In this document: positions 1,769 through 61,246 of the stretch, one piece after another
How the letters are laid out: every line of letters begins with the position of its first letter
How positions within the stretch are numbered: the stretch's first letter is position 1
Assembly: GCF_006345805.1 (NCBI RefSeq)
Contig: NC_043018.1
Span: forward strand, 1 to 64,000
DNA from: Octopus sinensis
Taxonomy: Eukaryota
Length of the DNA stretch: 64,000 nt
Direction of reading: 5' to 3'
Notes under the pieces: generated by a model
What the model was told of the DNA's origin: nothing
Database searches by the model: none
What the model saw: the letters and a program-made list of their open reading frames with translations, nothing else
Position numbers and translations under genes: made by a program

Positions 1769-2114
1769 ACAATTGCAGCGTGGAAGGTGTTTGTAAGCCA
1801 TTTAAGAAACACACAAAAACCGTTCGATTTACTTCAACATTTAAGTCTAATTTGTGAAAATATTTTCGTCGCTAAAATCCGCGATCTGTTCACTGACAAA
1901 AATCCGTGCTGCATCTTGGATTTTGGTCAGTGAACAGGTCGCGGTCTTAAAGCGACGAAAATATTTTGATAAATTAAACTTAAATGTTGAAGTGAATCGA
2001 ACGGCTTTTGTGTGTTTCTTAAATGGCTTACAAACACCTTCCACGCTGCAATTGTTTTCGTTTCAGCACACGATCTCAGATCAAATCACTTGCTATGCGA
2101 ATACATCTCCGTAA
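1769..2114. mobile_element. Palindromic Penelope-like pseudo-LTR remnant in (TA)n
   Basis: Inverted arms span 1769-2055 around a centre near 1910. Each arm has a hammerhead-like motif. Flanked by (TA)n. Confidence 0.65.
1923..1973 (+). ncRNA. Putative minimal type-I hammerhead ribozyme with G3-C8 core swap
   Basis: ttggtca-GTGAACA-g-GTCGC/GCGAC stem II-GAAA-ATAT-TT-tgataaa. Mirror copy on the minus strand at ~1852-1900. Confidence 0.5.
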
Positions 2115-2165
2115 TATATATATATATATATATTAATTATATATATATATATAATATTATATATA

Positions 2166-2314
2166 TACCGGATAAAAACAATATGTGAAACAAGGTGGAA
2201 AAAAAAGTACTCAAATACCAGTGGTAGAGTAATATGCTTTATTTTAAGCAGCAGAAAATTCAAAAAAATCTGTTACTCTGAGTTTCTCGTTGCCGTTCAT
2301 CAGACAGTTTTTGC
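2166..2314 (-). mobile_element. Penelope-like short repeat with hammerhead (2270-2307)
   Basis: Minus strand reads ctgt-CTGATGA-acggcaacga-GAAA-ctcagag-TA-acag. Same family as 43356-43523. Flanked by (TA)n. Confidence 0.7.
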
Positions 2315-2577
2315 TATATATATATATATATATATATATATATATGTCTTTATATTGCAAAAAGTAACACATGCCTACAGAAAATCAAGATACCAGTGTC
2401 CAAATATTTAATTATTATACTTAGTGTAGCAACGCCACCAGAGGCAATGACGTATTTACGTTGGTAGCTAGACTTAAGAAAATACATATCCATTCATACA
2501 AACCTAGATACATACATACATATGCGTATGTATACATACATACACACACACACACACACACACACATATATATACTG

Positions 2578-3007
2578 TTTTACTCTTTTACTCTTTTCCT
2601 CGTTTACTTGTTTCAGTCATTTGACTGCGGCCATGCTGGATCACCGCCTTTAGTCGAGCAAATCGACCCCGGGACTTATTCTTTGTAAGCCCAGTACTTA
2701 TTCTATCAGTCTCTTTTTGCCGAACCGCTAAGTGACGACGACGTAAACACACCACCATCAGTTGTCAAGCAATGCTAGGGGGACAAACACAAACACACAC
2801 ACACACACACACACACACACACACACACACACACACCACATATATATATATACATATATGCGACAGGCTTCTTTCAGTTTCTGTCTACCAAATCCACTAT
2901 AGCCCCGGGGCTATAGCAGAAGACACTTGCCCAAGATGCCACGCAGTGGGACTGAACCCGGAACCATGTGGTTGGTTAGCAAGCTACTTACCACACAGCC
3001 ACTCCTG
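2578..3007 (-). mobile_element. tRNA-derived SINE family A (internal (CA)n/(TA)n)
   Basis: Head AGGAGTGGCTGTGTGGTAAG...GGTTCAGTCCC (A/B-box-like), (AAGAGTA) tail. Near-identical copies elsewhere in the window. Confidence 0.85.
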
Positions 3008-3414
3008 AATATATATATATATATAAATATATATATATACATATGGATGTGTGTGAATATGTGTGAGTGCATGTGTATGCTGATTTATATATACCCGTGA
3101 GTCAATGAATTAAGGGAAGATAGGTATATTAAAGAACGAACACATTACTTATATCGACACAATATGGGCTTAACCATAAGTGGATATGCACTCACTGATC
3201 TGTCTGTAATCTATCATCTATCTATCTATCTATATATATCTATCTATCTATCTATCTATCTATCTATTATGTATCTATCTATATACGTATCTATCTATAT
3301 CTATCTATCTGTCTATGTATCTATCTATCTAGTATCTATCTATCTATCGATCTATTTATCTATCTATCTACTATCTATCTATCATCTCTATCTATCTATC
3401 ATCTATCTATCTAT

Positions 3415-58331: not shown

Positions 58332-58440
58332 TTTCTTTTTTTTCTTCTTCTTTCAAATTTGCTTCCATTTCTTGCCGAGTGTCTTCCCGACTCCTAGGGC
58401 AAAGAAACTCATAGTATACATTGGTAGGCCATTAAACTAA
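58332..58440 (-). mobile_element. Probable R4/Dong-type 3' tail abutting a long (TAA)n
   Basis: Minus strand CCCTAGGAGTCGGGAAGACACTCGGC...AAAGAAA(TAA)n, similar in layout to 1320-1385. Confidence 0.4.
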
Positions 58441-59136
58441 ACTCAATAATTCGTTCATTTTTTTTTAAGTTAAATTAAAATACATGGGTAGTAATAGTTC
58501 TCACATCGGCAATGCTCTTCTCAATACGTGTGATGTACCAGTTAAGACATTATTATCTATTATTATTATCATTATTATTATCATTATTATCATTATTTTA
58601 TTATTACCATTATTATTATTATTATTATTATTATTATTATTATTATTATTATTATTATTATATTATTAATATTTAGTTGAATCCAGGCCGATGAGAAGAA
58701 TAAGAGAAGTCATATATACTTGATTCTTGTCAAGAAAAGGAATCCATGAATATGTTCATCCCACGCATCTACTTATGACATTCTTTCGGTTTTGTGTTTT
58801 AATATCTCATTTCTGTTTTTCAAGTTTTATTGCAGTAAAATTAACCTTCATTCACCGAATATTTCTAGCTCTAGTAAAACGCAAGCACTCTTTTGCTATT
58901 GTCATACTTCTTCGTTAATGAATGATACAAGCATTACATTTTCTTTTTGCTTGCTAAGAGCAACAACAACAACAACAACGATAAGCAACGGCGTTGTTGT
59001 TGTTGTTGTTGTTGTTATCATCGTCATCGTCATGGCAATAGTTTTTATTTTATTATAGCGTTCTCCTTCTTTACAACTGAATTTGATTTTAATTGAAGCA
59101 GAAGAATCTGTATAAATTACAGGCAAATAGCAGCCA

Positions 59137-60561
59137 TACAAAAATGAAAAAAAAAAAAAAAGAGAGAAAAGAGAAAAGAATGTGAACGAGAACAAAATGG
59201 TTGACATAGTATTTCGATTCCAATGCTACATTACACCTTAGGAGTTTTTAAAAAATCGTAAAACTTAAATAATTTAAGATGTGTAAAGTTAAAGAAGCTC
59301 ATCATTTTACCGTGAATAATTCTTTTCGTCGCCGAAGGCTACGCACTCCTGATATTAATTTCTATGAACTAATACAGCCCCGCCCCCAAAGAAAATCTTC
59401 TGTCATGTACTTAAGTACTCCAACTTGTACTTTGCTTTATTTTCAACATTTATCCAAATTTTCGGAATTTTGTTCAAGACTATATATTTATTCATGTATT
59501 TCTTTCTTGGTCTGAGTATTTTATATTTTATATTGTTCTTTTTCTTTATGGGGTGGTGGGGTCTTCAGCCTCCTCTTCAATTTACAGGTAATCCCAAAGC
59601 TTCAAGGGAAAATTTCCAAAGTTAAAAACAAAAAAAAAGTTATAAAAATAAAATGAACCGTGAACGATATTTAAAACTTTTTGGAAAGATTAGTGTCAAA
59701 TTCGAAAGAATTCCATCGAATATTGTACGACATCCCCTTATCGGTAATTAGTATAAAACCCAAGGGGTTAGACGTTTATTCACGCACATATTTAGTCAAT
59801 CATGTGATCGAGCAGTAAATGTAATAAAATAAATGGTGGGACTTTACAAAATGAAAAAAAAAAAAAGAGAGAAAAGAGAAGAATGTGACGAGAACAAAAT
59901 GGTTGACATAGTATTTCGATTCCAATGCTACATTACACCTTAGGAGTTTTTAAAAAATCGTAAAACTTAAATAATTTAAGATGTGTAGAAGTTAAAGAGA
60001 GCTCATCATTTTAACGTGAATAATTCTTTTCGTCGCCGAAGGCTACGCACTCCTGATATTAATTTCTATGAACTAATACAGCCCCGCCCCCAAAGAAAAA
60101 TCTTCTGTCATGTACTTAAGTACTCCAACTTGTACTTTGCTTATTTTCAAAACCTTATCCAAATTTTCGGAATTTTGTTCAAGACTATATATTTATTCAT
60201 GTATTTCTTTCTTGGTCTGAGTATTTTATATTTTATATTGTTCTTTTTCTTTATGGGGTGGTGGGGTCTTCAGCCTCCTCTTCAATTTACAGGTAATCCC
60301 AAAGCTTCAAGGGAAAATTTCCAAAGTTAAAAACAAAAAAATTTATAAAATAAAATGAACCGTGAACGATATTAAAACTTTTTGGAAAGATTAGTGTCAA
60401 ATTCGAAAGAATTCCATCGAATATTGTACGACATCCCCTTATCGTATAATTTAGTATAAAACCCAAGGGGTTAGACGTTTATTCACGCACATATTTAGTC
60501 AATCATGTGATCGAGCAGTAAATGTAATAAAATAAAATGGTGACTTTACAAAATGAAAAAA
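59137..60561. repeat. Tandem duplication, ~705-bp unit x2
   Basis: Units start at TACAAAA(A)TGAAAAAAA at ~59137 and ~59845. The same motif recurs at ~60547. Confidence 0.93.
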
Positions 60562-61188
60562 ACATTAACGGTAACATTAACGTGTCTATGCATCTCTTGT
60601 CATTTATGTGTCATGTATAATTATATTACATTCCTGGGTGTATGTATGCTTCAATGAATAACGATACATGAACATATATATATATATATATATATATATA
60701 TATATATCTATATTTCCTATTTCTAATTATCTTTAACAGTCTGTATGTGTAAGTATTCATGTATTTAAGTTTGCATTCATATCTACGAGTATGCTTCTAT
60801 GTATGCGTGCAATTATATGTGAATGTAAAATGCATGGATATTTGTTGATGCGTCGCTAGTTACCTGTATGTGGATATATATATTATTTATATATGTAATA
60901 TATAATTCATAGTACCACCCGAGCACTAGGTACCCACTGGTTTAAATTAATATTATGTAATAATATTAATTTGTACCCTCATTGTTTAATCTTTAAGTAG
61001 CCATGTCCTCTAGTCGGTAGATTCGCTGTGGAACTTTATTAGCTGCAGAATTCTTCCCGTTTTGGAGCGCCACCATGAAGACATTTGGTTGGATATTTTC
61101 GATACATAATTGGCGGAACTTTATATGCATGTTCTCTGTCGTGCAGTCGATTTGTTTCTAGTTCCGTTGACTAATTATCTCTCAGCGA

Positions 61189-61246
61189 CTTCACTGACGA
61201 GCTACAGATGATTACGTTGGCAATCATTAATAGCGAAATTTTAAGG
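61189..61246 (+). ncRNA. Putative minimal hammerhead motif
   Basis: cttca-CTGACGA-GCTA..ATGATT/AATCAT..TAGC-GAAA-TTT-taagg. The 3' half is deleted in the paralogous block at ~37930. Confidence 0.5.

Follow-up and report, generated by a model that had tools for sequence, protein, structure and literature searches.

The first 64,000 nucleotides of contig NC_043018.1 of Octopus sinensis (RefSeq assembly GCF_006345805.1; this whole stretch is called the window below) contain a set of small motifs with the shape of hammerhead ribozymes. We find that these motifs are real and very probably mark the 3′ terminal repeats (pseudo-long terminal repeats, pseudo-LTRs) of about eight families of Penelope-like elements, present as short, decayed and probably inert copies. 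A sequence-only reading of the window had listed twelve minimal hammerheads and two half motifs, named here by their positions. Ten of the twelve are sound, as is the half motif at 18610; motif 37217 is doubtful, and motif 24931 and the half motif at ~23281 are unsupported. That reading had also assigned the motifs to the Penelope type, and their layout and sub-type features do match published motifs from Penelope-like elements (PMC4209133; PMC8557442). Hammerhead-bearing tail ends of such elements have already been described in other animals.

Hammerhead motifs exceed chance expectation

We searched the window with a descriptor in which G5, A9, GAAA and UH were fixed, at most one change was allowed at 3-8, 4 or 6, stem I had at least 4 bp, and stem III was self-complementary or at least 3 bp long. 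The descriptor was tuned after the motifs had been seen, and its controls were 40 local dinucleotide shuffles together with reversed and complemented DNA. With one core change allowed, it matched eight motifs (1923, 2270, 21549, 37653, 40673, 43381, 55274 and 61189), compared with 0.23 ± 0.52 (maximum 2) in the shuffles; with a strict core it gave 3 matches compared with 0.10. Reversed and complemented window DNA yielded no match at either setting. Two core changes gave 10 matches against 1.1, and leaving positions 3, 4, 6 and 8 free, the relaxed search that the sequence-only reading had proposed, gave 13 against 3.55 (maximum 7). The same reading had named a similar hit rate in shuffled sequence as the outcome that would count against it, and at one core change the two rates are far apart. 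A first, untuned descriptor gave 3 matches against 0.05 with a strict core and 7 against 1.2 with one change, and no excess when two changes were allowed anywhere in the core (17 against 10.2, maximum 20).

Two motifs fail the descriptor and are retained by homology: 44236, whose stem I has 2 bp, is 97% identical to 40673, and 36196, which has GAA where one A was lost, is a homologue of 21549 and 37653 (0 of 1000 shuffles as good). Motif 37217 passes only if a domain II of 97 nt is allowed. The hammerhead-like stretch at 24931-24968 (plus strand), with a 1-bp stem I and two core changes, passes at no setting. Three 3′ halves of the kind seen at 18610 occur in the window and none in two controls, a comparison that lent no support to the half motif at ~23281. 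We rejected a minus-strand motif nested at 37280 (stem I of 2 bp, no inverted homology, 208 of 500 shuffles as good) and weak matches at 59402, 60107, 29220 and 41214, whose scores lay inside the shuffle range. Folding of whole strands was uninformative (z of -1.5 and -2.2). The expectation that standard searches would miss these motifs was borne out, as Rfam gave no match in the window at gathering score and no hammerhead among the best 150 of 289 matches at E ≤ 10, a list dominated by microsatellite matches to microRNA models.

Two sub-types of hammerhead are present

The set follows the type I order (CUGANGA ... GAAA ... UH, with stems I and II closing), the exception being 24931. The core is canonical in 4 of the 12 motifs (2270, 37217, 55274 and 61189) and carries one change in six more plus 36196. 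Stem III is palindromic in 11 of the 12. The sequence-only reading had described a common layout with a palindromic stem III throughout; the five palindromes that it quoted are present, and the generalization breaks down at 55274, where a 4-bp stem III is closed by an 8-nt loop.

Two sub-types can be told apart. Motifs of the Hydra-clade type have a palindromic stem III of 3-5 bp and a U.U or other mismatch at 10.1/11.1 (2270, 43381, 40673, 44236 and 55274); the mismatch is U.U in 40673, 44236 and 55274, and a purine mismatch in 2270 and 43381, which form family E. Motifs of the Penelope/Poseidon/Neptune type have a stem III of 2-3 bp, an extra base after A9 and a G10.1-C11.1 pair (1923, 18610, 21549, 36196 and 37653), the last two features being seen together in 1923, 21549, 36196 and 37653. 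Motif 61189 has G10.1-C11.1 without the extra base, and it and 37217 perhaps belong to the Hydra-clade sub-type. The marks of that clade, namely a palindromic stem III of 3-4 bp, frequent U.U and insertion into (TA)n, fit family E and 55274; family D (40673 and 44236) has the motif but lies outside (TA)n. In folding computations on nine motifs, a dimer was more favourable than two separate monomers for seven. The hammerhead shape was reached by a single molecule only in 55274, a candidate for monomeric folding.

The earlier estimate of about eight families appears fair, but to call them unrelated was too strong, as 36196 is kin to 21549 and 37653, and 55274 to 2270 and 43381 (0 of 300 shuffles as good in each case). 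An apparent kinship of 18610 and 24931 was rejected because it vanished once a neighbouring short repeat was trimmed.

Copies, families and insertion sites

The stubs that carry the motifs are 140-230 nt long, and sister copies are 92-97% alike (3-8% divergence). Family E consists of a stub at 2168-2315 (minus strand; hammerhead 2270-2307), which has a canonical core and (TA)n at both ends, and one at 43356-43522 (plus strand; hammerhead 43381-43418), which has C4 and a 17-nt inverted piece at its 5′ end. Family B comprises 21453-21595 (minus strand; hammerhead 21549-21586), flanked by a 14-nt A+T-rich target duplication, and 37573-37787 (plus strand; hammerhead 37653-37690), which is flanked by (TA)n tracts and retains about 85 nt on the 5′ side; both have a U6 core. 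Their distant relative at 36096-36298 (minus strand; hammerhead 36196-36229) has C4 and a C-G to G-C swap in stem I.

The first family D copy occupies 185 nt at 40626-40810 (minus strand; hammerhead 40673-40715), within a hAT transposase remnant, and combines C4 and U10.1.U11.1 with a 10-nt palindromic stem III and an extended, bulged stem I. The second copy, at 44189-44373 (minus strand; 44236), has the same two ends, and its stem I is broken at the third pair. Both copies end in a G+C-rich hairpin on the 3′ side. Family C is a repeat of at least 1.3 kb, present at 59180-61418 and 37828-39247, with an internal 640-nt duplication and no coding match. Its hammerhead at 61187-61255 (plus strand; 61189) has a canonical core and a 34-nt domain II. 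The repeat continues for about 160 nt beyond it, to a 3′ end bounded by (TA)n. The second copy of the element retains a 5′ half of the motif at 37931-37946 (minus strand), the remainder having been lost when about 110 nt flanked by short direct repeats were deleted; this deletion, and not an intron, accounts for the gap.

Two insertions are hairpins. The one at 1769-2113 (plus strand) lies between two (TA)n tracts and has head-to-head arms about 92% alike and a one-sided tail (~2055-2113). Its hammerhead at 1926-1970 (1923) has a G3-C8 core, the extra base after A9 and G10.1-C11.1, and a second hammerhead copy at ~1854-1897 on the minus strand, in the inverted arm, has the same G3 and C8. The other, at 55135-55343 (plus strand), lies in (TA)n and carries the hammerhead 55273-55329 (canonical core, U.U, 9-bp stem I), with a tail of about 80 nt that is confined to the left arm. 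The 3′ half motif at 18611-18638 (plus strand) has a 5-bp stem II, GAAA and an ACGU palindrome. The doubtful motif 37217 (37220-37343, plus strand) has a canonical core, an 8-nt palindromic stem III and the long domain II mentioned above. Pieces beyond those first listed are the copies in inverted arms at 1769-1905 and 55219-55276, the 5′ half at 37931-37946 and a tail fragment at 25434-25503.

(TA)n tracts occur within 250 nt on both sides of 6 of the 12 motifs, compared with 11% of unmasked positions (p ~0.001), and within 150 nt on one side of 7 of the 12, compared with 28% (p 0.03). The motifs are therefore enriched beside such tracts, as had been noticed, but the proposed rule that they mostly lie within them does not hold generally, since 40673, 44236 and 21549 lie outside. 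Marks of Penelope-type insertion (an inverted head-to-head copy, a one-sided tail and an A+T-rich target) are seen at 1769-2113, 43356-43522 and 55135-55343, to which the 14-nt duplication at 21453-21595 can be added.

Coding remnants and an outside family point to a probable Penelope-like origin

Profiles built from 153 and 31 Penelope-type proteins found a single remnant in the window, a GIY-YIG endonuclease piece at 23375-23819 (plus strand). This piece is frameshifted, has a decayed Cys linker and no attached hammerhead, is 55% identical to reverse transcriptase/GIY-YIG proteins, and has one weak GIY-YIG match in Pfam; it appears to be Neptune-like. Nearby, at 23148-23335, a short stub between two (TA)n tracts holds a small open frame that resembles, by eye only, a Penelope-type linker or C-terminus and has no profile match. 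Moderate evidence points to a decayed Penelope-type reverse transcriptase piece at 37011-37223 (minus strand), which scored 35.4 bits, compared with at most 28.1 in 200 shuffles, with one strong query of 153 (E 0.003), and gave no Pfam or profile match. As this probable piece is antisense to the 37217 core and adjoins it, 37217 is possibly a chimera.

Family E could be traced further, in a set of metagenome contigs that match the pattern of 2270 and 43381 and were thus chosen by the family's own stems. The pattern gave at least 138 matches at 120 or more outside loci (about 150 estimated), of which at least 80 have long flanks; the loci collapse to at least 103 insertions, 99 of them in two subfamilies. 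One subfamily reads like the Hydra-2_aMil row in File S2 of Craig et al. (PMC8557442). At one outside locus (L022), a Hydra-type endonuclease C-terminus like that of Hydra-2_Amil ends 102 nt before C3. As judged from sequence, the stems and core of family E belong to this outside Hydra-clade element, with the end of its endonuclease about 100 nt upstream. No frame with the protein hallmarks of that clade (RWK, DKT, a CxCX5C linker and no CCHH) is attached to a window copy, and of the outside protein the endonuclease end at L022 is the part that was seen. Patterns for family D, for 1923 and for the outside tail matched no viral contigs.

Many copies begin just upstream of the hammerhead core

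The 5′ ends of the copies cluster close to the core. In the window, right arms start 2, 8 and 12 nt before C3 (55274, 43381 and 1923, respectively), 2270 borders (TA)n 12 nt upstream of C3, 21549 reaches its duplication about 14 nt upstream of C3, and 18610 is truncated within the core beside a (TA)n tract. Both family E copies start at the same base. Longer 5′ sequence is present in 36196, 37653, both D copies and 61189.

The outside family shows the same pile-up. Among the matches listed, 57 5′ junctions were visible and 42 were cut by contig ends, a censored class that assembly breaks bias, and the pattern is blind to copies cut inside the motif. Within this sample, 50 of the 57 junctions fall 4-16 nt before the core (0.054 per nt at risk), one at 17-55 nt (0.0008 per nt at risk) and six beyond. 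The commonest exact junction is -9 (20/63 among the matches listed), and an inverted motif piece lies directly upstream in 24 of 51 short copies, again among the matches listed. The 3′ ends fall either about 27-31 nt or about 96-103 nt beyond stem I, positions about 70 nt apart. The outside family also has TATA-like boxes at -43/-40 and initiator-like sites at -12/-9, a kind of short A+T-rich, promoter-like word that is common. The simplest reading, and a likely one, is that transcripts start at the junction spot and are copied to their 5′ end. Our literature search, in papers covered in part, found none that states this junction-core spacing.

A model for the origin of the stubs

Biochemical work on a Penelope-like element provides a framework. 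A+T-rich DNA is nicked on both strands by the protein of the element, and reverse transcription begins at two internal positions, by which the tail is set; the RNA used is mainly uncleaved, ribozyme cutting requires the protein, and, in this one in vitro system, insertion does not need catalysis (PMC11167929). In rotifers, repeats have been reported both as solo copies and head to head around palindromic junctions, with a TATA/initiator pair inside the repeat (PMC3846280), and an internal promoter has been described in Drosophila (PMC2377424). In the octopus, the element protein would likewise nick A+T-rich DNA on both strands, and two internal starts of reverse transcription would produce one-sided tails. 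With uncleaved RNA as template, whole hammerheads would be copied. A short transcript that begins some 10 nt upstream of the core may often serve as the template, and copies would then end or fold back at that point. In the parent element, weak cleavage by dimers of the motif would be aided by the element protein; genomic singles of the kind seen here would not cleave. We infer that the window copies are inert. Sister copies occupy different strands or lie at a distance from one another, and the two members of a hairpin pair are mutually antisense. A shared transcript is conceivable only for the D copies, which lie 3.6 kb apart on one strand.

Several observations weigh against this account. 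None of the window motifs has a significant Penelope coding remnant attached to it: the GIY-YIG remnant is not followed by a hammerhead, the reverse transcriptase piece depends on 1 of 153 queries, and for families C and D any link to coding sequence is lacking. That both D copies share both ends is unlike random truncation. The outside family was selected by the stems of family E, and its tails show a weak likeness to those of family E (at best 6 of 500 shuffles as good, otherwise 46-334 of 500). A TATA/initiator-like pair was not found before the five window copies with long 5′ sequence. The hammerhead fold lies within 0.3 kcal/mol of the minimum-energy fold in only 1 of 9 monomers.

Alternative explanations and core variants

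Chance matches in low-complexity DNA would explain why the first descriptor showed no excess at two core changes, and 24931, 23281 and possibly 37217 may indeed be of this kind. For the set as a whole, chance is refuted by the eight matches against 0.23 in shuffles and scarcely credible in view of the strict-core excess, the sister copies, the compensatory swap in stem I and the outside homologues. Another explanation concerns family D and perhaps C and E, which might be short non-autonomous elements, or scattered single units of non-LTR retrozymes, mobilized by Penelope proteins in the form of small RNAs that are self-cleaved and possibly circular. Identical ends over 185 nt in the D copies, their extended bulged stem I, which resembles that of canonical type I hammerheads, and the common first base of the E copies would all suit such units, and solo retrozyme monomers derived from these repeats are common in other animals (PMC7229834; bioRxiv 10.64898/2026.07.22.740005). 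We nevertheless consider this doubtful: no tandem array in the window covers a hammerhead, retrozymes have canonical cores where D has C4 and U.U, and shared ends are also what a fixed transcript start combined with a fixed start of reverse transcription would give.

It is also conceivable, as the sequence-only reading suggests, that the changed cores, G3-C8, C4 and U6, are family norms under selection and that this genome contains many functional variant ribozymes. G3 and C8 occur together in each arm of the 1769-2113 hairpin, so this pair either predates that insertion or dates from it. U6 is found in 2 of 2 family B copies and C4 in 2 of 2 family D copies, and C4 recurs in 1 of 2 family E copies and in 36196. 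In published work, an engineered C3G/G8C double change is partly active (PMC11167929), and U4C and U10.1-U11.1 occur naturally and are tolerated (PMC3088659). Yet the other family E copy has U4, as do its outside relatives in 138 of 138 of the matches listed, though the pattern allowed C; the relative of family B has A6, and changes at position 6 lead to low activity (PMC3088659). Moreover, the copies have diverged and occur singly, and insertion in vitro could proceed without catalysis (PMC11167929). With two copies, a change typical of the family looks the same as one that arose by decay of a single source copy, and we regard selected variant norms as unlikely. A natural G3-C8 core was found in no literature report, a search that did not cover Lunse et al. 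and so does not establish its absence from print.

Density and significance

The 8-11 motifs in 64 kb amount to one per 6-8 kb, and the 3-4 canonical cores to one per 16-21 kb. The sequence-only reading had extrapolated to a very large and diverse ribozyme repertoire in this genome. Its diversity of families stands, but the claim was overstated, as most copies are decayed singletons unable to pair in cis, and a genome-wide figure cannot come from one window picked for richness. A bolder extension holds that stubs occur about once per 6-8 kb throughout the genome, a density well beyond those published for minimal motifs, with G3-C8, C4 and U6 fixed in whole families, that transcripts start about 10 nt before the core, and that the motif, as the 5′ end of the RNA, is kept more for its paired fold (holding two templates, with cDNAs meeting head to head) than for cutting; we think it quite unlikely that all of this holds.

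The kind of finding reported here is known: the layout, the extra base, the palindromic stem III, U.U, (TA)n targeting and the many families per genome have all been published. What remains of value is the high local density, the natural G3-C8 core and the 5′ junction rule. A genome with many families offers natural alignments that could reveal which core bases Penelope-type hammerheads need. The sharp 5′ junction pile-up is a cheap, testable handle on the role of the motif in retrotransposition, and a useful one because insertion did not depend on catalysis in the single in vitro system (PMC11167929).

Other features of the window

The window has a G+C content of 37%, 30% of it is masked as tandem repeats, and dispersed repeats are abundant. 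Proteins resembling its translations are eukaryotic and, like the telomere-type array described below, fit animal DNA. Among the 150 longest of 241 unmasked frames, Pfam matches indicate remnants of Tc1, hAT, zf-BED, zinc-knuckle (zf-CCHC) and zf-RVT transposons. Two abundant dispersed families have copies that are mostly 85-97% alike: one of about 385 nt (14740-15131, 23922-24298, 39778-40158, 41345-41734 and 42136-42520) and one of about 170 plus 150 nt flanking a microsatellite (2614-3007, 18733-19067, 25028-25363, 25503-25893 and 32624-33010). An 18-nt minisatellite in 103 copies and a 61-nt G+C-rich tandem repeat in 6.4 copies lie at 19346-21182 and 31335-31724. Further hairpin-type inverted repeats at 61772-61911 (83%, between (TA)n tracts) and 29212-29288 (88%) contain no hammerhead match. 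A degenerate telomere-type array at 46325-51053 runs in two opposite orientations, TTAGGG-type at 46325-49936 and its complement at 49974-51053, and resembles a fusion or inversion scar; a retroelement remnant with zinc-knuckle and zf-RVT (44656-46504, minus strand) adjoins its left end.

Comparison with known hammerheads and retroelements

Cervera and de la Pena (2014) described hammerheads of Penelope-like elements with the type I layout, an extra base after A9, G10.1-C11.1, a palindromic stem III and weak dimer cleavage, and found that a genome may hold thousands of motifs from heterogeneous families, most of them lone truncated copies, with pairs on opposite strands (PMC4209133). The window motifs share this layout and the palindromic 15.2-16.2/loop 3, and likewise represent many heterogeneous families as mostly truncated singles with opposite-strand pairs; the extra base and G10.1-C11.1, which that work counts among the diagnostic features, are seen in the Penelope/Poseidon/Neptune sub-type. 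The window motifs differ in their cores: the variant in that work is U3-A8, and G3-C8, C4 and U6 are absent from its 56-row alignment. Published counts are about 3,300 motifs in Schistosoma, 4,000 in the coelacanth and 9,000 in Xenopus (PMC4209133), and, elsewhere, more than 6,000 in 16 families in a coral and up to 120,000 in the axolotl (PMC7229834). Set against approximate genome sizes, the local density in the window is above what the former counts would suggest. For Octopus vulgaris, an old expansion and 31 families of Penelope-like elements with recent activity have been reported, in an account whose consulted sections do not mention ribozymes (PMC13282606), and our literature search found no octopus hammerhead survey. 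The window motifs also bring to mind the small dimer-cleaving Penelope-like hammerheads of Lunse et al., which reportedly have a similarly reduced stem III and cleave as dimers.

Non-LTR retrozymes share with the window short units with one type I hammerhead, solo copies and an origin from these repeats; they are defined by tandem repeats and circular RNAs, whereas the window holds no tandem unit (PMC7229834; bioRxiv 10.64898/2026.07.22.740005). The Hydra-clade motifs in File S2 of Craig et al. (2021), which include an Octopus bimaculoides element, have U.U, a palindromic stem III of 3-4 bp and a preference for (TA)n (PMC8557442). The listed consensuses of that clade have canonical cores (PMC8557442). 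Family E has a stem II of 2 bp and a purine mismatch, and no Hydra-type coding sequence lies in the window. Shared with Hydra-2_aMil, Hydra-1_oBim and Penelope-n_HM, by contrast, are the type of stem III, U.U, (TA)n targets and a motif 100-200 nt before the 3′ end, and the stem I and stem III arms of Hydra-2_aMil are identical to those of family E (PMC8557442).

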